Part shown: positions 1,821-57,753 of the stretch, piece after piece
Position numbering within the stretch: the first letter of the stretch is position 1
How the letters are laid out: the number at the start of each line of letters is the position of its first letter
Assembly: GCA_016179955.1 (NCBI GenBank)
Contig: JACPCD010000005.1
Coordinates: forward strand, 10,323 to 74,322
Direction of reading: 5' to 3'
Source: Candidatus Woesearchaeota archaeon
GTDB lineage: Archaea; Nanobdellota; Nanobdellia; Woesearchaeales; GW2011-AR9
DNA: 64,000 nucleotides
Position numbers and translations under genes: made by a program
The notes under the pieces: generated by a model
Told to the model about the DNA's origin: nothing
Database searches by the model: none
What the model saw: only the letters and a program-made list of their open reading frames with translations

Positions 1821-1843
1821 ATCGGTTCTCAGGTTTGATAATA

Positions 1844-1851
1844 TTTATAAA
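1844..1851 (-). promoter_or_regulatory. TATA-like box TTTATAAA (palindromic), 27 nt upstream of ATG 1820; may also serve the + gene at 1893 (45 nt away)
   Basis: Position measured by hand in the 72-nt divergent intergenic region. Confidence 0.5.
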
Positions 1852-6469: not shown

Positions 6470-7627
6470 TTAACTAATGCGCCGCAGGATGGTGCGCAAA
6501 GATTTTTCTGTAAGCTCCCGTGGATTGTTCTTTACCCTTTCCTGATTAAATCCATTGGCAACAATAATGTCGTGATCTTCCGGGGTGGTTATGTTAAGCA
6601 TGGCCAGTTTTCTGGTAAGTTCGATCTGATCCATAAGCTGGTTTATCTTTTGTTGCATCTCCTCTGGTGTCTGGACCCGAAAGATCGAACACAAATCGTC
6701 CATAGTTTTTTTAACATAGGCCGGTCCTCTTGTATCCAGACAATCTTCAGCATTTATTCCTGTATTATAAAGAGAAATTTCTCCTAAAGTCAAGGCACAG
6801 GCATGACCATGAGCAATGCCAAAATAAGATGTTAGGGGATAAGAGATGGAGTGGCAGGCGGTAGTTTTGGAAACATTTATCGCCTTGCCCGCAAGATTAG
6901 CTGCTTTCATCATGGCCGCACGATGTTGCAGTGAAGGATTAGTGACTGCAGATTTTAAATTATCTAAAACAATAGTAATTGCCTGCCGAGCGTAATCTTT
7001 TGATTCTTCTGTTGACTGATTGGACCAGTAGGATTCGACCGCATGACACAAAGCATCTATCCCGGTAGAAGCAGTAATATTCTTAGGCAAATTTAAAGTA
7101 AGGGTTGGTTCCAGGAATACATATTCTGGCAGCATCCATTCCTGATGAGCCAGAGAATATTTTTTTTTATGGATATAAACCACCGCAAAATGGGTTGCTT
7201 CAGAACCAGTTCCAGCAGTGGTGGGGATAGCAATCAGTGGTTTTGGTTTTTGGCTTGGCTCAATCTCTTTTTTGATATACCTCTCTGGTTCTTCCGGTTC
7301 CGCCACCAGAAAATTAATTGATTTGGCCATGTCCATGACGCTTCCTCCACCAATTGCAATAGCCAGATCGCTTTCAGCCTGTCGGAATAAAGCTATTCCT
7401 TTCTTAATGTCTTCAAGTTGCGGGTTGAGTGAAAAATCAGAGAAAGTAGTTACTTTATAAGCAGAAAGAAGCGGCTCCATCATTTCTTGTGCCCTTGAAT
7501 GTTGGTAAGAAATTTTACCAGTTACTAGAAATATTGAGGAAGGTTTTTCCTGTTCTAATACTTTTTTGAGACCAGCCAGGCTTCCTGAACCAACATATTC
7601 TTGCTGCATTTTTTGCATTTCAAGCAT
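6470..7627 (-). CDS. Iron-containing (group III) alcohol dehydrogenase; by context, phosphonoacetaldehyde reductase (makes 2-hydroxyethylphosphonate)
   Basis: 385 aa Fe-ADH architecture (GGGSVMDMAK glycine motif, His-rich metal region HAVESY...HGHACA). Lies 4 nt downstream of ppd on the same strand. Confidence 0.7.
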   Translation of the reverse strand: MLEMQKMQQEYVGSGSLAGLKKVLEQEKPSSIFLVTGKISYQHSRAQEMMEPLLSAYKVTTFSDFSLNPQLEDIKKGIALFRQAESDLAIAIGGGSVMDMAKSINFLVAEPEEPERYIKKEIEPSQKPKPLIAIPTTAGTGSEATHFAVVYIHKKKYSLAHQEWMLPEYVFLEPTLTLNLPKNITASTGIDALCHAVESYWSNQSTEESKDYARQAITIVLDNLKSAVTNPSLQHRAAMMKAANLAGKAINVSKTTACHSISYPLTSYFGIAHGHACALTLGEISLYNTGINAEDCLDTRGPAYVKKTMDDLCSIFRVQTPEEMQQKINQLMDQIELTRKLAMLNITTPEDHDIIVANGFNQERVKNNPRELTEKSLRTILRRIS

Positions 7628-7631
7628 CTCT

Positions 7632-8765
7632 TCATCTTTGAATAAATTCCATGAATTTATTTTTATTTTCCATCGGAGATTGCGTGGGCCGTCCTAGATC
7701 CTTACGCGCGCCTTTATTGCAGCGTATCTCTAATAATGCCGGACCTTTCCCTTGCTTAATTGTTAGTAATTCCTCCCGTATCTCCGTCGCATTCTCAGCA
7801 CTACAAAATGTTTTATACCCATTAGCTTTCGCTATTCCGGGAATATCAATAGCATTAGCGGCGGTAGGCTGTCCGCCAACGGAGTCATGGGCAAAATTGT
7901 TGAAAATGATATGGTTAAAGTTTGCTGGTCGTAATTTTCCGATGGTTGAAAGAACTCCCATATGCATAATTAAAGCTCCGTCCCCATCAAAACAATATAC
8001 TCTTTGATTCGGCTTCTGGAGAGCGATGCCTAAAGCGATGGATGAAGAATGCCCCATCGATCCGACAGTTAAGAAATCTTGGTGGTGTCCATGTCCTGCT
8101 GCTTTCCGAAACTCAAATAATTCCCGTGAGGTTTTTCCCGTGGTAGAGACAATGATATCACCTTTATCAAGAAGCGAGGCTACCAATTTAATTGCTTCCT
8201 CCCGAATCAAGGGGAAATGAGTCTCCTGTTTCGTTTTCAATGAATAGGAATCAAATGTCCCCTCTCGAACTACGAAAGCATAAGGAGTTTTAGTATTGTC
8301 CAAATGTTCAGCCGCTTTTTGTACTTCTTTTTTCACTTCCTCTTCACTTTCAGGAAGGATAGCATACGGAATTTCTAACACCTCCAGCAACGGCAAAGTT
8401 ATTCTGCCCATCTTGCGATGCTGCGGCTCATCTTTTTTTCCTGCTTCGCCCCGCCATCCGATGAGCAGCAGCAGCGGTAAGGAATAAATTTCTTTATCGG
8501 TAAGCGAGGTTAGAGGATTAATACAATTGCCTAATCCCGAATTCTGTAAATAAACTACGCCCACTCTTCCTGTTGCTAAATGATAGCCTGCGGCTAAGGC
8601 AATGGCATTTCCTTCATTGGCAGCAATGATATTATTTTTTGAAGAAGTATTATCTGTAACGTACGCACAGAAATCTTTCAACAGGGAATCAGGGACGCCA
8701 GCGTAAAAAGAAAAGCCGTGTCCATGCAATAGATTAAAAAAGTATTGCGGTGAAATCATCTCCAT
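7632..8765 (-). CDS. ppd: Phosphonopyruvate decarboxylase (TPP-dependent)
   Basis: N-terminus ...FFNLLHGHGFSFYAGVPDSLLKDF and TPP motif GDGALIMHMG...x...NN. Sits in a locus with PEP mutase. TATA geometry favours Met3 (ATG 8759) as a leaderless start. Confidence 0.85.
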   Translation of the reverse strand: MEMISPQYFFNLLHGHGFSFYAGVPDSLLKDFCAYVTDNTSSKNNIIAANEGNAIALAAGYHLATGRVGVVYLQNSGLGNCINPLTSLTDKEIYSLPLLLLIGWRGEAGKKDEPQHRKMGRITLPLLEVLEIPYAILPESEEEVKKEVQKAAEHLDNTKTPYAFVVREGTFDSYSLKTKQETHFPLIREEAIKLVASLLDKGDIIVSTTGKTSRELFEFRKAAGHGHHQDFLTVGSMGHSSSIALGIALQKPNQRVYCFDGDGALIMHMGVLSTIGKLRPANFNHIIFNNFAHDSVGGQPTAANAIDIPGIAKANGYKTFCSAENATEIREELLTIKQGKGPALLEIRCNKGARKDLGRPTQSPMENKNKFMEFIQR

Positions 8766-10631: not shown

Positions 10632-11999
10632 CTAAACCTTATTTCTTCCTTCTTGGTTAAACCAGGGAATCATTTCACCAAAAGCACGGGCAGAATTCTG
10701 TTTCCCTATCAACGAAAGTTCTCGCTGAGGTTCACCCGCAACCCTTCCGCCAATTCTCAAAACTAATAATTTTCCATCCGGTCCGCGAAAATTATGTGGA
10801 ACAAACGGCTTTACATACATAGAGTCGTTTGGCATGATGGATTCGCAATACTCGTGGTCATCAGTGCGCCAGTTAATGTTCACTGGTGAATTTCCCACAT
10901 TATACACATATTGATGCAGGCCGACTTTAAGATCTAGGATGTCTCGGTTTTTATCGGACTGTTTAAGAACTTTCAACTCCAAGGCCCGGGAGTGGGATAG
11001 ATGACTTGTTCTTGCCAATTCCACCAATTTATACGCTGGATCAATACTGGGAAAATCCCATCTCCGGTTAGTTCTATAATAATTGACCAACACTTTCTTT
11101 TGTATATCGTCTGGAGGCAGTAATTCCCGCCGGTCAATATTTAATGCTTCTGCCAGCGCTTCGAGGTCATCAGGTTTTGGTAAAACCGTTCCCAATTCAT
11201 ATTTTTCTAAAAGAGATAAAGAAAGTCCAGTTCTCCGAGTTAATTCCGGATGATCAATACCGGCTGCTTCTCTATGAAACCGTAGCAGAGAAGCAGCTGC
11301 TTTTTCTCGAGTAGAAAAATCCAAGGCATAATCAGCGGCAAGTTCTGGACCTATTGCAGATAATTCTTGTTGTGTTTCTCCGGCAAGCTTATTTCCATAG
11401 GTTAAAGCAAGAATAAGTCCTTTCTCGCCAGCCCTATTCTTGCGGGTGGCAAATGTATGCGGAACAAACGGAGTAATATACATGGAGTCGCCGGTATTCA
11501 TGACCGCAACTTTTTTATCCCCCCTTTCTCCTTTGTAATAAAAATTAACCGGACCGATAAAGTATGTAAATTGATGCAGGAAGTGTCCATTGTTCCATTG
11601 CACTGCCTGATGGTTAGCACTATTGTTATCTACTATGCACAGTTCTTTGATCCATTCCGGCCGAAATTGGCCGACCGTGCTGGCAACTGTATCGCGATAT
11701 TCATAATACGGCTGGCCGGCACGTTTCATAACCCGGCTAGTTTTGGCGGATTCTTTCGCTCGCATGATTTTAACACCGATTGGACAATCATCGTTGACAC
11801 AATAGAAATCACGTTCGTTGACCGGCCATATCCCTGCTGCTCGCCTTATTAATTCCGCCGGAATCTCTTTCTCACCACTTAAATAATAATTAAGTTCGTC
11901 CACTGGGATCTTAAGGTCAGCTGCTGCATCTTCCGGTCGGCGTTTGAGATCATTCAGAATGCCTAAGAGATTCTGCGCGCTTCTTTTTTTATAGTTCAT
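10632..11999 (-). CDS. mpnS: HEPD/MPnS-family non-heme Fe(II) 2-hydroxyethylphosphonate-cleaving dioxygenase; residue pattern predicts methylphosphonate synthase
   Basis: 455 aa with two (HTH + cupin) repeats. The first cupin has H139, Q143, H181 with F153 and I175. All five sit at a constant -9 offset from the N. maritimus MPnS residues H148, Q152, H190, F162, I184 as I recall them. No Glu at the position of the HEPD Glu ligand (I175 instead). Codons verified on the DNA (CAC 11585-11583, CAA 11573-11571, TTT 11543-11541, ATT 11477-11475, CAT 11459-11457). Confidence 0.65.
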   Translation of the reverse strand: MNYKKRSAQNLLGILNDLKRRPEDAAADLKIPVDELNYYLSGEKEIPAELIRRAAGIWPVNERDFYCVNDDCPIGVKIMRAKESAKTSRVMKRAGQPYYEYRDTVASTVGQFRPEWIKELCIVDNNSANHQAVQWNNGHFLHQFTYFIGPVNFYYKGERGDKKVAVMNTGDSMYITPFVPHTFATRKNRAGEKGLILALTYGNKLAGETQQELSAIGPELAADYALDFSTREKAAASLLRFHREAAGIDHPELTRRTGLSLSLLEKYELGTVLPKPDDLEALAEALNIDRRELLPPDDIQKKVLVNYYRTNRRWDFPSIDPAYKLVELARTSHLSHSRALELKVLKQSDKNRDILDLKVGLHQYVYNVGNSPVNINWRTDDHEYCESIMPNDSMYVKPFVPHNFRGPDGKLLVLRIGGRVAGEPQRELSLIGKQNSARAFGEMIPWFNQEGRNKV

Positions 12000-12104: not shown

Positions 12105-13409
12105 TCATTCACCATTTGGTATTAGAGTAATAATTTCTTTAATGGACATGCATTGTTCATTACTTGCTTCATAACTTCGTTTATTCTTTAAAATAGATTC
12201 TGCTGTTTTTACCATAGCAGGATAAGCACTACGCAATAAATGATTAGCATATACAACCATATTAACTCCTGCCGTAATAAGTTCTTCTTCAGTGATTATA
12301 GAATAGGTGCTAGGGACCACGACTAAACTTACTTTAGTCTCAAATTTTTTGTATTCCTTGCAAAACTGTAAAATTTCTTCCGGGTTCTTTTCTTTACTAT
12401 GGATCATTATTCCATCAGCTCCAGCGGCAATGTATGCTTTTGCTCTTTCCAGGGCGTCAGCTAAACCTTTCTTTAGAATTAAACTTTCTATTCTCGCAAT
12501 AATCATAAAATCATCGGAAGCCTGAGACTTTTTCCCTTCTGAAATCTTGCGGCAAAAATTTTCTATTGTATCCTGATTTTGCTCTACTTCAGTTTCAAAA
12601 AGAGAATTTCTTTTCGAACCAATTTTATCTTCAATTACCACTGCTGAGACGCCCAATCTTTCCAAGGTTTTTACCGTAAAGCGGAAATGTTCAATTAATC
12701 CTCCGCTGTCAGCATCTACCAGCATTGGTTTAGTAGTTACCTCAAAAATTTCACTTACAGTGTTGCCTATAGAGGTAATATCCACATATTCAATATCTGG
12801 TTTACCTTTAGAAGTAGCATGGGTCAAACTGCTTAACCAAGTGGCATCAAATGTTTTGGGGACATTATCTTCATCTTTCACCATGGTTTTTTCAACAATA
12901 ATCCCGGTTAAACCATTATGGGCTTCTAAGATGCGTATCATGGATTTAGCGTCCAGCAAACGCCGCAGCATATTGCGGCGAATATCGGGGGTAATTCCTC
13001 TTTGTTTAACTTTAGTTATTAGCTGGGTTGAAGAAATCCCCTGAGTATAAAGCGGTTCAACAACTTGGCCGCCCCATTCTTTCATCACCTCTATTACCCT
13101 TTGGCGCTTTTTTGCCTGTATCCCTATTTTCCAGTCATCGCCATGAACAAAATAATCCGGCTTTAATTCTCGTATGGCGGGGATGTAATCGTCATCTTCC
13201 TGCGCATAGACCTTGCTTACCGTGCGTATATTTTCAATAACTTTTTTACGCTGCTCAAAAGTCAATATGGGGAGCCGCTTATAATTAGCAATGGCCCGAT
13301 CGGTCAGAAGCCCCACTGTCACTTCTCCAAGTTTGCTGGCTTCATTAAGAATATTCATATGGCCGTCGTGGAGTAAATCGGCAGCCATGGGAACATATAC
13401 TTTTTTCAT
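12105..13409 (-). CDS. pepM: Fusion of a cytidylyltransferase-like domain (HxGH) and phosphoenolpyruvate phosphomutase
   Basis: N-terminal MAADLLHDGHMNIL (HxGH nucleotidyltransferase motif, ~135 aa). The C-terminal ICL/PEPM fold carries the PepM-diagnostic EDKIGSKRNS (EDK-x5-NS). SD-like GTGAGGT lies 8 nt upstream of the ATG. Confidence 0.85.
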   Translation of the reverse strand: MKKVYVPMAADLLHDGHMNILNEASKLGEVTVGLLTDRAIANYKRLPILTFEQRKKVIENIRTVSKVYAQEDDDYIPAIRELKPDYFVHGDDWKIGIQAKKRQRVIEVMKEWGGQVVEPLYTQGISSTQLITKVKQRGITPDIRRNMLRRLLDAKSMIRILEAHNGLTGIIVEKTMVKDEDNVPKTFDATWLSSLTHATSKGKPDIEYVDITSIGNTVSEIFEVTTKPMLVDADSGGLIEHFRFTVKTLERLGVSAVVIEDKIGSKRNSLFETEVEQNQDTIENFCRKISEGKKSQASDDFMIIARIESLILKKGLADALERAKAYIAAGADGIMIHSKEKNPEEILQFCKEYKKFETKVSLVVVPSTYSIITEEELITAGVNMVVYANHLLRSAYPAMVKTAESILKNKRSYEASNEQCMSIKEIITLIPNGE

Positions 13410-13752
13410 CTTGGTACCTCACTTTTACCTAGTTTTCATCTTGCTTCTGGTTAAAAAATAGTATATAAACTTTCGGGAACAGCAATACCTTTTCTTCTGC
13501 ATTCAACTAAGATAAATAATCAAAGTGTTTATTAAGCGTTTTTATATTTTCATCATATACCACTACCAGCTACCGTGAGATTGTCTGCAGAAAACAATCT
13601 TTATTTCAAAATATTAATAAATACCCCTTTATGTTTGATAACTTGGCTACTCCAGAATGGAAAAAGAAGTAATTATATGTTAAAATGAAAGAAACTATTA
13701 ACATAATTATATAACCAATCTTTGTTACCAGTTCATCCCGTATATTATCAAA

Positions 13753-18980: not shown

Positions 18981-19988
18981 TCATGGCATCCGGAGGGCAT
19001 TATAAAAAAATTCTGCTTCCTTCTTCAGTTTCTCGCTGCTTTCCTTGTTGTTCTCCAATATTAATGCTTTTACCCCTGCATTTACCAATTGTTGCATTGA
19101 TTTCTGAGGATCAAGCACTGTATACATCTCATCCTCACCATCGGTTATAAACGTGTGAGATTTAAACCACTGGGCAACTTTCTTTTTCCCATTTATCATT
19201 ATCGGAAGTGCATAAGAAAATTTTTCATAACCTGGTTGATTACCCTGCCAGTCCGCTAAGGTTAATGCTTTCTCATCAAATGCTTTAATTATTCTTCCAT
19301 CCGGAAGGCTTACGCGTTGGTCCATGCCTTGGGTTTCTGGTTTTTTCTGCTCGGCTACAAATACGTGCCCGTTGGTGTGGACAACTGGAGCCAAGTAACC
19401 AGAATCAATTATTTCCTGTACTGCTCCATAATACCACGTTGCAGATTCCGGTGGTATTTTGGTAGAGTATGTTCCATCCGCTAGACAGGTAACGTCCAGC
19501 GGTTTTTGAAGTGATTGCAGATAAACTCCGGTCTGAAACAAGTGGCATATATCAATAAGAACTTTCGACTCCGCAGATTGCGCCAATGTTATCAAGTCTT
19601 TTGGAAAAGCAGTATTTGCCTCCAATGCTGCCGGTGACGTTGCCGGAAGTGCTTCAATAGCTTTGTGTTCGTATCGTAATCGTTGAAGTCGTTCAATCTT
19701 CTCCTTAAATCCATCAACGGCAACATATATTGCTCCAAAAGGCGAATTTTTACCTAGGTCCGACAGGAAATTCAATCGATCCAAAAGTTCAATCCAGCGC
19801 TGTTCTTCTTCCTTACCCTTAAGGTCAATGCTGGTGGGGAATAAACCTGCCCGTGCTTCTTCCTCTAGAGCATTCCAATCCTCTCGACGAGCGATCACTG
19901 CCTCATAAACTGAAAAGCCCGCTTTCTTTAAATTCTCGGTTTGCTTCCCGGGTCTTGCTTTTCCACCTATTGTAAAATCAAGGGGCAT
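18981..19988 (-). CDS. Hypothetical protein (335 aa), no family recognised
   Basis: Long ORF with its own TATA plus decamer promoter, and the only minus-strand gene inside a plus-strand run. The DICH and ILEN motifs faintly recall TIM-barrel sugar isomerases but occur in the wrong order. Confidence 0.5.
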   Translation of the reverse strand: MPLDFTIGGKARPGKQTENLKKAGFSVYEAVIARREDWNALEEEARAGLFPTSIDLKGKEEEQRWIELLDRLNFLSDLGKNSPFGAIYVAVDGFKEKIERLQRLRYEHKAIEALPATSPAALEANTAFPKDLITLAQSAESKVLIDICHLFQTGVYLQSLQKPLDVTCLADGTYSTKIPPESATWYYGAVQEIIDSGYLAPVVHTNGHVFVAEQKKPETQGMDQRVSLPDGRIIKAFDEKALTLADWQGNQPGYEKFSYALPIMINGKKKVAQWFKSHTFITDGEDEMYTVLDPQKSMQQLVNAGVKALILENNKESSEKLKKEAEFFYNALRMP

Positions 19989-20010: not shown

Positions 20011-20030
20011 TTTTTAATGTTTCTGGAACA
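20011..20030 (-). promoter_or_regulatory. TATA-like box (20011-20018) + 2 nt + conserved decamer TTCTGGAACA (20021-20030; reads TGTTCCAGAA on the transcribed orientation)
   Basis: TATA centre is 26.5 nt from ATG 19988. Same architecture at 32283, 50317 and 55442. Confidence 0.55.
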
Positions 20031-20074
20031 AAAATCGGGCCCTGTAAACGCCCCTATACCTTAGTTACCCAACC

Positions 20075-20082
20075 TTTATAAA
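20075..20082 (+). promoter_or_regulatory. TATA-like box TTTATAAA for the aminotransferase operon
   Basis: Centre is 28.5 nt upstream of ATG 20107. Confidence 0.55.
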
Positions 20083-23918: not shown

Positions 23919-23938
23919 TGTTTCGAAAGGTTTAAATG
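23919..23938 (+). promoter_or_regulatory. Degenerate decamer TGTTTCGAAA + 2 nt + TATA-like TTTAAATG
   Basis: TATA centre is 25.5 nt upstream of ATG 23960. The decamer matches TGTTCCAGAA at 7/10 positions. Confidence 0.4.
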
Positions 23939-29257: not shown

Positions 29258-29363
29258 TTTTTGCTGAGTTGATACCCTGCCCCTTGGGGCGACTTCATTG
29301 TTTAATGCCTGCTGTTTCCAGCAAACATTAAAAATACCCCGCCGCTTGCGGTGATTTGGATTT

Positions 29364-32282: not shown

Positions 32283-32302
32283 TTTAAAAATGTTCCGGAA
32301 CA
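32283..32302 (-). promoter_or_regulatory. TATA-like TTTAAAAA + 2 nt + decamer TTCCGGAACA (part of the perfect palindrome TGTTCCGGAACA) for the pseB operon
   Basis: Measured by hand. Same 2-nt spacing as the three other sites. Confidence 0.55.
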
Positions 32303-32363: not shown

Positions 32364-32384
32364 TGTTCCTAAACGCTTTTAAAT
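32364..32384 (+). promoter_or_regulatory. Decamer variant TGTTCCTAAA + 3 nt + TATA-like TTTTAAAT for the second cytidylyltransferase
   Basis: TATA centre is 27.5 nt upstream of ATG 32408. The decamer matches at 8/10 positions. Confidence 0.45.
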
Positions 32385-38773: not shown

Positions 38774-38848
38774 AAGTTATCGGAATTACTTATTCTTTTT
38801 TTTAAACTTTATGTAAAACTAGCTTCCAAAACCTCTTTTTAATAAACT

Positions 38849-38856
38849 ATTTAAAT
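38849..38856 (+). promoter_or_regulatory. TATA-like ATTTAAAT for the GNAT/deacetylase operon
   Basis: Centre is 25.5 nt upstream of ATG 38878. Confidence 0.5.
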
Positions 38857-49724: not shown

Positions 49725-49732
49725 TATAAATA
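49725..49732 (-). promoter_or_regulatory. TATA-like TATAAATA for the rpe-led minus-strand operon
   Basis: Centre is 26.5 nt from ATG 49702. A degenerate decamer-like TTATGGAATT follows at 49735-49744. Confidence 0.5.
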
Positions 49733-49791
49733 CCTTATGGAATTATAAAGAATTTGCTTATGTGCTGCCTAAGATGGGTTTGGGTTCTGTA

Positions 49792-49956
49792 GGCTCTGTC
49801 CTAAATCTCGCTGACGCTCGGGTTAGTGGATTCAAAGCTTTGTTGTTGCTTCTTTAAGGCTGACGTTCCCCGGATGGGACAACCCCCTTGTCAGCAGGAT
49901 ATTCTGGTTGGATAAGCTTTGACCTGATGCCACTAACCTACATTTAGGACAGAGCC
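49792..49956. repeat. 165-bp GC-richer nested inverted repeat (rod-like); candidate MITE or structured RNA
   Basis: Perfect 15-nt terminal arms GGCTCTGTCCTAAAT (49792-49806) / ATTTAGGACAGAGCC (49942-49956). Inner stems at 49821-49829/49930-49938 (GGTTAGTGG/CCACTAACC), 49832-49840/49914-49922 and 49859-49864/49890-49895. Confidence 0.55.
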
Positions 49957-50294
49957 GTTTCTGCACTTAATTCTGAGTCCTGGCAGTATTTAAAGTTATA
50001 GTGTAAAGCAATAGATGCCTTTTGAAGTTCTTTTCCAAGATAAGCAGCATGATCCAATAATGACACCCACCCTTCATCAATAATTTTATACATAATCTCT
50101 TCAGGGGTCTTTCCTTTTATGATTCTGATTAACTTGTGCTCATTAGTACAATGTCCTACTTCTATCATCTGCTGCTCCGGGTTAATGCGTATTAAGAAAT
50201 AACCGGCCGGGTCCAGAACCCATTTCTGCCGAAACCCGTCAGCATCTATCGCTTCTTTGATCTCTTCTTTGATTTCCCACCATTTTCCTTTCAT
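49944..50294 (-). CDS. Small protein, DUF4346-like (tentative)
   Basis: LDPAGYFLIRI...IEVGH...LLDHAAYLGKELQKA resembles DUF4346 as I recall it. Start moved to Met7 (ATG 50294), 26.5 nt from the TATA centre. The last 4 codons and the stop lie inside the right arm of the inverted repeat. Confidence 0.4.
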   Translation of the reverse strand: MKGKWWEIKEEIKEAIDADGFRQKWVLDPAGYFLIRINPEQQMIEVGHCTNEHKLIRIIKGKTPEEIMYKIIDEGWVSLLDHAAYLGKELQKASIALHYNFKYCQDSELSAETALS

Positions 50295-50316
50295 TCCATA
50301 AATTTGGGTCATAATA

Positions 50317-50336
50317 TTTATAAATATTCTGGAACA
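50317..50336. promoter_or_regulatory. Palindromic TATA box TTTATAAA (within ATATTTATAAATAT) serving both directions, + 2 nt + decamer TTCTGGAACA
   Basis: TATA centre is 28.5 nt from ATG 50349 (+) and 26.5 nt from ATG 50294 (-). Confidence 0.55.
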
Positions 50337-50348
50337 TTTAACACTTAT

Positions 50349-53470: not shown

Positions 53471-53478
53471 TTTTTAAA
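53471..53478 (-). promoter_or_regulatory. TATA-like TTTTAAAT upstream of the flippase gene
   Basis: Centre is 28.5 nt from ATG 53446. Confidence 0.4.
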
Positions 53479-53531
53479 TATTATCAAACTGTAGCGTCAT
53501 TGAAAAGTTCACGTCAGCTGCCACCATAAGA

Positions 53532-55367
53532 TTAACGTTCATCTCTGGTCAAGGGCACTTTATAAACGATATACTTCTCGTTTTCATAAAATAAACTAAG
53601 GTTCAATTCTTTTGGTTTCTTGAAGAGGGCATAGCTAATATTGTACTTGCGGTTTAATCTTTCCAAATCGTTTTCCTGAAGCGAATCGTAACCCTGAAGT
53701 ATCAGATAATACTCTTTGAGTTGCGAGAATGTTGTAATTTGGTGATTGCTGATATCTCTAATCCGGAGGAACCATCGGGCCATACCTTTGTCAGTAAAAG
53801 GATGTAAATGGTCTACTACAATTGACCTATTGGCAGTTGTCCTGAACCCCGATAGGTCAAAGGGGGTTAAAAAGACGGCATCAGGGGGAGAGTTAATCTT
53901 AAGATAATCCAACATTTCATTTGTTTCAGGGTCGTGAGTAGGGATATGTAAATGGGGGTTGAAAGGGCCAATTATTGCCGTTGCTAAAGAAATAATTATT
54001 ACAATAATAGCAATTATCCTTTCCTTTGCTGTCAGTGTGTACATTAATATGAAATAAAACATAATTGGGATTATGACAAAAGGGAGCACGGCATTGAGAG
54101 CCATGCGTTCTCTGGGGAGCAGAAATAATAAATAGTTATATACTAAAAATATTCCTGCACCGGTTAGTAATATTGTTATAGGGATTATGGTGTTTTTTTT
54201 CCTAAGGAAAAGATCAAATACATCCATTTCTTTTTTTTCTTGATAATATTCAATTAATAAGAATAAAGGTATCGCCAAAATAGCCAGCAGCGGATAGATA
54301 AAAAAAATCGGAACCATTATCAAATACTTCTTTTCTAACCAATTTCTTGATTTTTCTAAACGGTCAAAGAGATATGCCCCTAACGTTAAATATCCCAAGA
54401 GGGCAATTATCTTTGTGGCCCTAAATATTACCATCTTAGTTATCGTTGCAATGGGGTATATCTCCACAAAGACAACCCCTATAATGATATACAATAAAAT
54501 TATCCACGAAAAATTTCTGATGATCCGTTTATGTTTATACTCATAATTCGTCCTTTTTAATATAAAGATAAACAATATAACAAAAAGTATAAAAGGCAAG
54601 ATGATTGTCATCCCCCATGACGATGGCAGGGTATGGGTTACATGAAAGTTAGCATAAATTTTGGCAGCAGCTATCGCCAGAGTAGGGGTACTATCAATAT
54701 TACTCAAATACAGCGGTATAATCAACAGCAAGGAAATTATAAAATAGGGGGCACTTTGCAACAAAGAGATGGCTTTCTCTTTGGAGAAGAGGGGTTTAGA
54801 AAGGAGGAGGCCTCCAATAAACAATCCAGCAATAGGGATTCCTTCTCCAACATCTATAAGTGTAACTAATCCCAATATTGTAAAAGAATAAATATATTTC
54901 TCCCTAAAATAGAAATATATTGCAATGACTAAGAGAGCTGAGGCCAGACCATTAGCCGAAAGAGAAGATTTAAAAAAAGAAATCCCTCCGAGAACAATAG
55001 GGTAGCCCACAAAAAAGATTGCGGTTGTGAAAAAAGTCTTATTCTTTTCCTTTAAAATTGTTTTTATTAAATAGTATAATCCACCAATGAACAGGGCAAA
55101 AGAGAGACTATGCAGAAATAAGACTGTCCACTCTAAGTTCCTAAAAATATAATTTATAATTATAATTAATTGGTTATAGAAATATCGAGCATCAAAACCA
55201 GAAGTCTCTTTAATGTACCAATCATTAGAGAGATAGTCTGGGTTCATTATGTGAAAAACAGTAGGGATATTTTGAGCCTGGCTTGCGGTGCCTAATTCGG
55301 TGCTCGTGAGAAAACCGTAGCTGATGGCTAAGGTGATTAAAGCAAGAAGATGATAGTTGATTTTCAT
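53532..55367 (-). CDS. Large polytopic membrane protein with a C-terminal soluble domain; possible GT-C glycosyltransferase or polymerase
   Basis: 611 aa with more than 12 hydrophobic helices followed by a ~130-aa hydrophilic tail. I recognise no diagnostic motif. Confidence 0.4.
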   Translation of the reverse strand: MKINYHLLALITLAISYGFLTSTELGTASQAQNIPTVFHIMNPDYLSNDWYIKETSGFDARYFYNQLIIIINYIFRNLEWTVLFLHSLSFALFIGGLYYLIKTILKEKNKTFFTTAIFFVGYPIVLGGISFFKSSLSANGLASALLVIAIYFYFREKYIYSFTILGLVTLIDVGEGIPIAGLFIGGLLLSKPLFSKEKAISLLQSAPYFIISLLLIIPLYLSNIDSTPTLAIAAAKIYANFHVTHTLPSSWGMTIILPFILFVILFIFILKRTNYEYKHKRIIRNFSWIILLYIIIGVVFVEIYPIATITKMVIFRATKIIALLGYLTLGAYLFDRLEKSRNWLEKKYLIMVPIFFIYPLLAILAIPLFLLIEYYQEKKEMDVFDLFLRKKNTIIPITILLTGAGIFLVYNYLLFLLPRERMALNAVLPFVIIPIMFYFILMYTLTAKERIIAIIVIIISLATAIIGPFNPHLHIPTHDPETNEMLDYLKINSPPDAVFLTPFDLSGFRTTANRSIVVDHLHPFTDKGMARWFLRIRDISNHQITTFSQLKEYYLILQGYDSLQENDLERLNRKYNISYALFKKPKELNLSLFYENEKYIVYKVPLTRDER

Positions 55368-55441: not shown

Positions 55442-55461
55442 TTTATAAATCTTCTGGAACA
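55442..55461 (-). promoter_or_regulatory. TATA TTTATAAA + 2 nt + decamer TTCTGGAACA; near-identical copy of the 50313-50338 block
   Basis: 26-nt block 55438-55463 versus 50313-50338 with one mismatch (hand alignment). About 78 nt upstream of ATG 55367. Confidence 0.5.
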
Positions 55462-57711: not shown

Positions 57712-57745
57712 GGTTTTTCTCTCTTGAGCCTCTTTTTAACAAGTT

Positions 57746-57753
57746 ATTTAAAT
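57746..57753 (+). promoter_or_regulatory. TATA-like ATTTAAAT (palindromic) in a divergent intergenic region
   Basis: Centre is 25.5 nt from ATG 57775 (+) and 38.5 nt from ATG 57711 (-). Confidence 0.5.

Follow-up and report, generated by a model that had tools for sequence, protein, structure and literature searches.

Gene content of the window and position of the decamers

The analysed DNA, hereafter called the window, is a stretch of 64 kb, taken from a groundwater Candidatus Woesearchaeota MAG, about 7% of which is intergenic. Two of the encoded products, PseB and a hypothetical protein, show 100% identity to proteins reported at NCBI for Candidatus Woesearchaeota archaeon (HYU22_00485, the hypothetical protein, and HYU22_00650), and the window DNA is also found in the Logan assemblies SRR12113431/24/84; a neighbouring run of the same SRR series has been tied to a groundwater organism (bioRxiv 10.1101/2024.02.19.580942). 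Pfam annotation of about 50 proteins encoded in the window identifies the entire 64 kb as a surface-glycan island, which contains a nonulosonate pathway (PseB, PseC, NeuB and two CMP-transferases), as well as aminotransferases, PMT-type transferases, glycosyltransferases, FemAB-like enzymes, a flippase and a cluster for phosphonate biosynthesis. The latter, located between positions 6470 and 13409, is of the methylphosphonate type; this Woesearchaeote has the complete set, with the following genes:

6470..7627, Fe-alcohol dehydrogenase
7632..8759, TPP decarboxylase
10632..11999, methylphosphonate synthase homologue of 455 aa (6b9s, E = 2e-158), labelled by Pfam only as HTH_31/cupin
12105..13409, PEP mutase/cytidylyltransferase fusion

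The product of 10632..11999 keeps the His/Gln/His ligands together with a Phe and an Ile, where HEPD (6b9r) has Tyr and Gly instead; these residues are taken here as the discriminators between MPnS and HEPD. Being the only HTH-containing protein of the window, it was considered as a possible regulator, and rejected as a methylphosphonate synthase.

The original prediction concerned four copies of the decamer TGTTCCRGAA, each placed two nucleotides upstream of an 8-nt TATA box and directed towards a minus-strand gene, and three degenerate copies. All four composites are present on the minus strand, with identical 2-nt spacing, and the degenerate copies were confirmed at 32364 (TGTTCCTAAA), 23919 (TGTTTCGAAA) and 49735 (AATTCCATAA). 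A fifth, near-exact site, missed in the first reading, is likewise separated by 2 nt from a perfect TATA box. The sites and their look-alikes are listed below.

13462..13481, minus strand, fifth site TGTTCCCGAA-AG-TTTATATA (decamer at 13472-13481), 52 nt before the ATG of the PEP mutase/cytidylyltransferase fusion
20011..20018, minus strand, TATA box of site 1, ATTAAAAA, spacer AC, 22 nt before ATG 19988 of the hypothetical gene 18981..19988
20021..20030, minus strand, decamer of site 1, TGTTCCAGAA, at -12 to -3 from the TATA box and about -42 to -33 from the predicted TSS
20063..20082, plus strand, partial copy AGTTACCCAA-CC-TTTATAAA, 25 nt before ATG 20108 of the DegT-GFO-PMT operon, matching the decamer in GTT and AA only
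23919..23938, plus strand, degenerate copy TGTTTCGAAA-GG-TTTAAATG, 21 nt before ATG 23960 of a NeuB-family synthase
32283..32290, minus strand, TATA box of site 2, TTTTTAAA, spacer CA, 22 nt before ATG 32260, the true PseB start
32293..32302, minus strand, decamer of site 2, TGTTCCGGAA, promoter of the pseB-pseC-cytidylyltransferase-oxidoreductase operon
32364..32383, plus strand, degenerate copy TGTTCCTAAA-CG-CTTTTAAA, 24 nt before ATG 32408 of a CMP-sugar cytidylyltransferase
49725..49744, minus strand, weak copy AATTCCATAA-GG-TATTTATA, 22 nt before ATG 49702 of ribulose-phosphate 3-epimerase
50317..50324, either strand, palindromic TATA box of site 3, TTTATAAA, spacer TA, 22 nt from ATG 50294 (minus) and 24 nt from ATG 50349 (plus)
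50327..50336, minus strand, decamer of site 3, TGTTCCAGAA, promoter of the DUF4346 gene 49944..50294
55442..55449, minus strand, TATA box of site 4, TTTATAAA, spacer GA, 74 nt before ATG 55367
55452..55461, minus strand, decamer of site 4, TGTTCCAGAA, promoter of the DUF6798 membrane protein gene 53532..55367

The exact decamer occurs within the window at four sites, corresponding to five strand matches, as the palindrome of site 2 counts on both strands; the expected number is 0.26, and none of 100 shuffles preserving dinucleotide frequencies reached five matches. All exact copies fall within intergenic DNA, always with 2 nt between the decamer and the 8-nt TATA box downstream of it, and no decamer was found with a different spacing to a TATA box. 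When one mismatch is allowed, 16 matches are found versus 9.2 expected, most of them background. The observation is real and non-random, and slightly broader than first reported.

An origin from repeats or mobile elements was rejected, no repeat larger than 26-31 nt being found in the window. No tRNA or Rfam matches were found in the window either, and, since at sites 1-3 transcription is predicted to start downstream of the element, its interpretation as an RNA element was rejected.

A further decamer-like sequence is located inside the pseB operon, in a 106-nt spacer (29258-29363) that separates the cytidylyltransferase gene from the oxidoreductase gene and is absent from the syntenic loci L246, L250 and L251. 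In this spacer, a CCGCaaGCGG hairpin precedes a run of T, and the plus strand contains TTTCCAGCAA-AC-ATTAAAAA, pointing antisense into the operon.

Leaderless promoters and the two halves of the decamer

At sites 1-3, exactly 22 nt separate the TATA box from the ATG (19988, 32260 and 50294), and these are therefore leaderless archaeal promoters; in most first genes of the window the TATA box is found 20-26 nt before the ATG. At site 4, where the distance is 74 nt, the 5' UTR is predicted to be about 52 nt long, and one of about 30 nt is predicted for the fifth site, where a GAGGT Shine-Dalgarno-like sequence precedes the PEP mutase ATG. The starts of the longest ORFs for PseB (GTG 32335) and for the DUF4346 gene (ATG 50312) are wrong. 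Protein lengths in the databases (345 aa for PseB, 335 aa for the hypothetical protein and 235 aa for the cytidylyltransferase) agree with the leaderless starts.

Throughout the window, taking the longest ORF systematically sets the start too far upstream (longest-ORF/leaderless start: 32335/32260, 32363/32408, 50312/50294, 50304/50349, 20098/20108, 23936/23960, 35308/35281, 57628/57775), an ATG located 20-26 nt past the TATA box fitting both the public gene calls and the starts of the orthologues. Internal operon genes are preceded instead by GGAGG/GGTGA-like ribosome-binding sites. The 54-nt divergent spacer at 50295-50348 contains a single palindromic TATA box, TTTATAAA, with BRE-like sequence on both sides. 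This box (50317-50324) probably serves both divergent leaderless genes as a bidirectional promoter, with the decamer placed between the box and the radical-SAM start.

Upstream regions of 78 first genes, from the window and from the syntenic loci L246, L250, L251, L259, L261, L262 and L243, were aligned on their best TATA box. A good TATA box is present in 60 of them, and all sampled promoters come from glycan islands, except for that of the L243 ferredoxin. The pattern C-7 R-6 n A-4 A-3, followed by 2 nt and by the TATA box, is found at all sites and orthologues; the four exact sites all have a purine at -6 and A at both -4 and -3. Outside the decamer class (47 of the 60 aligned promoters) the same positions show C-7 in 47%, R-6 in 66%, A-4 in 64% and A-3 in 60% of the cases.

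In archaea, the TFB-recognition element (BRE) is bound by the C-terminal HTH of TFB and sets the polarity of transcription. In the decamer, the 3' half, C R n A A, is the canonical BRE: position -6 is a purine, positions -3 and -4 are A, it points to the downstream gene, and at least about half of the aligned promoters contain it. This half accounts by itself for the fixed spacing and orientation. The orientation is always towards the downstream gene, also at palindromic TATA boxes, and the BRE is especially important here because many of the TATA boxes are the palindrome TTTATAAA. The published BRE is 6-7 nt long (RNWAAW), with key positions at -3 and -6 (PMC5512572; bioRxiv 10.64898/2026.06.17.732947), whereas the element described here is conserved as far as -12 (TGTTY), the extension being restricted to a subset of promoters. 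Since conservation to -12 is seen in 13 of the 60 promoters and in the orthologues, the TGTTY part is not canonical BRE, and the element is longer than a BRE, as originally proposed.

The 5' half is located at -12 to -8 from the TATA box, corresponding, at sites 1-3, to -42 to -38 from the ATG/TSS; its centre is 5 bp from that of the BRE half, as deduced from the geometry. Matches of at least 8/10 to the decamer are found in the same 13 promoters, versus a single 8 at a control offset. Among the 47 other promoters, 7 carry GTT starting at -11, versus 0-2 at any other offset, in strict register with the TATA box. Taken together, these two sets indicate that about one third of the promoters carry the TGTTY extension, and about two thirds do not. 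The original prediction was to count as refuted if the decamer proved to be simply the general BRE consensus, found at most promoters of the organism: this holds for the BRE half and, in the available sample, does not hold for the TGTTY half, because two thirds of the promoters are without the extension. By using a PWM derived from the relatives only, the non-orthologous window sites 4, 3, 1 and 13462-81 score 25.5, 22.1, 19.7 and 19.1 bits, with a null maximum of 19.6; with site 2 included the ranking is 4, 2, 3, 1 and 13462-81, with scores ranging between 19 and 25.5 bits.

Conservation in related lineages and associated genes

A metagenome scan for PseB returned six loci, none of them of use for the comparison; one is the L246 lineage, and at another (L254) no recognisable TATA box was found upstream of the gene. 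PseB promoters from four lineages read TGTTCCGGAAca, aGTTCCAaAAcg, TGTTCCAaAAcg and TGTTCCAGAAcg, in each case 2 nt before T/CTTTTAAA, with the TATA box 22 nt before the ATG. The pattern (T/A)GTTCC..AAC.-TATA is thus kept, without any change in spacing, in L246, L250 and L251, for a protein identity of 67-79%, while the intergenic DNA around the cores is unalignable among lineages. The NeuB promoter keeps TGTT(T/G)C..AA in four lineages (window, L246, L250 and L251), and the orthologous promoter of the CMP-sugar cytidylyltransferase in L251 reads AGTTCCAAAA. At the DegT operon, only the GTT core at -11 and AA at -4/-3 are kept in 4-5 lineages, GTT being found in L261, L259 and L250. The orthologues of the site 1 gene, hyp335, in L259 and L261 have lost GT and keep only C-7 A-6. 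A-4 A-3, which indicates that the TGTTY extension is dispensable at some promoters. The thiolase promoter is conserved in two lineages without the extension, which is also missing from the L243 ferredoxin promoter, just outside the window. For DUF6798, the closest orthologous contig stops 76 nt upstream of the gene, before the expected TATA box, and the other orthologue is too distant.

At site 2 the decamer forms, as originally noted, the perfect palindrome TGTTCCGGAACA; this is peculiar to the genome under study and is not conserved. In its place the orthologous promoters have AGTTCCAAAACG, TGTTCCAAAACG and TGTTCCAGAACG, position -5 is not always a G, and conservation stops at -12, so that the proposed half-palindromic operator for a dimeric factor is not sustained. 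Neither a second half-site nor a conserved dyad (TTCnnGAA or a 12-bp palindrome) was found in the window and in the orthologous promoters. The unconserved palindrome, the variability of G-5, the lack of conservation upstream of -12 and the absence of the element at other TATA distances all argue against a dimeric regulator with a symmetric operator.

All three nonulosonate units (pseB operon, neuB operon and CMP-transferase) show matches of at least 8/10, compared to 7 of the 33 window promoters overall, corresponding to a hypergeometric p-value of about 0.006 for a three-unit grouping defined post hoc. Copies of the element are found before the PEP mutase, DUF4346, DUF6798 and hypothetical genes as well. 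Of the co-regulation originally suggested for nonulosonate and export genes, the nonulosonate enrichment is therefore retained, with the same post hoc reservation, while a confinement to these two categories is contradicted by the PEP mutase, DUF4346 and hypothetical genes. The flippase, which the original prediction counted under site 4 only in case of co-transcription, has its own, different promoter. Within the glycan-island promoters sampled, the element is shared by 3/3 nonulosonate units and conserved for PseB, NeuB and DegT in 4-5 lineages, yet it is also found at unrelated genes and is lost at hyp335.

Two further pairs of look-alike promoters are found in the window. The sequence GGTTTGATAATATTTAWAAA, at 1832-1851 (plus strand) and 53471-53490 (minus strand), precedes a PMT_2 gene and the flippase; CCTCTTTTTAAYAA..TATTTAAAT, at 38832-38856 and 57729-57753, lies 20 nt before the GNAT (38878) and DegT (57775) starts. 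These pairs suggest that the island may use several promoter classes.

The search was extended to other assemblies. Logan contigs containing the window-edge proteins extend only 1.7-2.2 kb outside the window, and none of the loci obtained by pattern scanning belongs to this genome, as judged by tetranucleotide similarity. The matches listed for TGTTCCRGAANNWTTWWAAA in viral contigs are chance matches, and the ATG-anchored version gives one viral match. In genome contigs the composite is present at no fewer than 118 loci, mostly bacterial chance matches; seven archaeal ones were inspected.

In four other archaeal MAGs, one labelled Methanosarcinales, another a Woesearchaeote and two from groundwater archaea, the exact composite is located 22-24 nt before real ORFs (L128:7287-7331, L153:1930-1975, L169:5062-5106 on the minus strand, and L206:543-589). 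By N-terminal sequence alone, these resemble an ATP-citrate-lyase-like protein, a possible PHP-domain protein, an unidentified protein of 348 aa and a HAD-type hydrolase. The neighbouring promoters in the four loci are without the element. By a rough estimate, four such matches before ORFs of unrelated function are compatible with chance among very many archaeal promoters.

Interpretation and comparison with known systems

The reading that we favour, with a confidence about evenly balanced between acceptance and doubt, is that the decamer combines a BRE with an abutting upstream element, which would act through the pre-initiation complex of leaderless Woesearchaeal promoters; it is derived from sequence comparison. 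The BRE part would recruit TFB beside TBP, and fix the direction of transcription at TATA boxes which are often palindromic (TTTATAAA). The non-palindromic TGTTY (T-12 G-11 T-10 T-9 Y-8) marks all nonulosonate operons, where related lineages keep it, and about one third of the glycan-island promoters, here and in related islands. Its action would most likely be positive, in fixed register with the pre-initiation complex, by stabilising TFB/TBP, and the outcome would be a shared high or co-ordinated transcription of the operons. TGTTY could be read, about equally likely, either through extra contacts made by TFB or a TFB paralogue, or by a small factor located on the opposite DNA face and touching TFB. 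The extended TFB contact contemplated by the original prediction is thus a viable option. We know of no TFB-BRE contacts beyond about -7, and a direct reading of TGTT by TFB would therefore be without precedent. That in this DPANN lineage TFB or a TFB paralogue reads an extended BRE of 10-12 bp, the presence or absence of TGTTY sorting promoter classes, so that the basal machinery of an organism very poor in dedicated regulators would exert a sigma-factor-like control on surface-glycan (nonulosonate) synthesis, appears doubtful.

Graded similarity to the decamer across many promoters (e.g. GGTTTGATAA, CGTTTCATCA, AGTTACCCAA and TCTTTCCAAA), enrichment of GTT at -11 even outside the decamer class, the fixed TATA register and the asymmetric conserved pattern would all be expected if the decamer were the best match to an organism-wide extended BRE, read by TFB and defining no regulon, the exact copies being the strongest promoters. 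The small number of regulators encoded by DPANN genomes also speaks in favour of such an explanation, which we nevertheless regard as rather unlikely. GTT at -11 is missing from about two thirds of the 60 promoters, and those lacking the extension include conserved ones, among the thiolase (2 lineages), ferredoxin, GT4 and GNAT promoters; the match scores are in excess at 8-10, rather than forming a smooth tail; and L128 and L153 carry the exact composite, but their neighbouring promoters do not.

The restriction of the element to a subset of promoters, its enrichment at nonulosonate units and its maintenance at orthologous promoters could also reflect a dedicated regulator, having the full decamer as operator. 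By overlapping the BRE, it would repress by TFB exclusion and co-regulate the surface-glycan genes, activation being a less likely variant; at the shared TATA box (50317-24), the bound factor could oppositely affect the DUF4346 and the divergent radical-SAM genes. Archaeal repressors often overlap the BRE/TATA box, and activators bind just upstream of the BRE (PMC5512572). Against such a regulator stand the lack of a conserved dyad or direct repeat, the absence of the site 2 palindrome in orthologues, the variable G-5, the absence of conservation upstream of -12 and the fact that the element never occurs at another TATA distance. Furthermore, the BRE-overlapping part is already accounted for by the BRE, and Pfam scans of the about 50 proteins of the 64-kb window revealed no regulator gene, the HTH_31 match being the methylphosphonate synthase, although one may be encoded elsewhere in the genome. 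On the whole, we consider this explanation rather unlikely as well. Far less probable still is shared ancestry without shared function, by which promoter cassettes would have been copied during the shuffling of glycan islands. Sites 3 and 4 do share 26 nt with 96% identity, and other look-alike promoter pairs exist (GGTTTGATAATATTTAWAAA at 1832/53471; CCTCTTTTTAAYAA..TATTTAAAT at 38832/57729), but among the other sites the likeness ends at the 20-nt functional core, and this core is kept at orthologous promoters, where PseB is 67-79% identical and the flanks are unalignable. A core kept despite unalignable flanks points to selection, not to recent copying.

To our knowledge, nothing is known experimentally about the transcription signals of Woesearchaeota or other DPANN archaea, and no paper on a Woesearchaeota TATA box or promoter was found in the full-text literature. 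The locus offers a clean promoter model, consisting of BRE, TATA box, 22 nt and a leaderless ATG, and led to the correction of several start codons. It also provides a candidate class-specific element, tied to genes for the cell-surface sugars which these episymbionts present to their hosts. If specific, the element would give a handle on the co-ordination of the glycan island in a regulator-poor genome; if general, it would define the extended BRE of the lineage.

Activator sites upstream of the BRE are known in several archaea, such as the EarA boxes of M. maripaludis fla, the S. solfataricus ara-box and the sites of P. furiosus TFB-RF1 (PMC5512572, PMC5937170). Like the element described here, they lie just upstream of the BRE. 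They serve a functionally coherent gene set, with EarA governing a surface structure, and have been proposed to aid TFB or TBP recruitment (PMC5512572, PMC5937170). However, they are associated with a weak BRE/TATA and with dedicated factors, either identified or inferred, and their sites occur as repeats or palindromes with a looser phasing, whereas here a single 5-nt extension accompanies a near-consensus BRE and TATA box. The TFB/TBP paralogues of haloarchaea and Sulfolobus TFB3 offer a different parallel, in that a variant general factor could select a promoter class by TATA-adjacent sequence, as in the option of an extended TFB contact; TFB3 itself has no DNA-binding HTH (PMC6101591).

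The closest precedent would seem to be the A(N)TTTC element of Sulfolobus acidocaldarius, located at -44 to -39 in UV-inducible promoters, where it is essential; S. tokodaii has it too, and no protein that binds it has been identified so far (PMC5817253, PMC6101591). The two differ in sequence and phylum, and while the Sulfolobus element was proven essential by reporter assays, the present one is known from sequence alone; unlike the former, it is contiguous with a consensus-quality BRE. TGTTY is a short, non-palindromic motif, found at a fixed place (-42 to -38, within the range of about -38 to -44 typical of the Sulfolobus type) just upstream of the BRE. Both elements are short, asymmetric and T-rich, directly upstream of the BRE at a fixed position; the Sulfolobus element is shared by promoters of one functional class and kept in related species, and TGTTY may resemble it in this respect.
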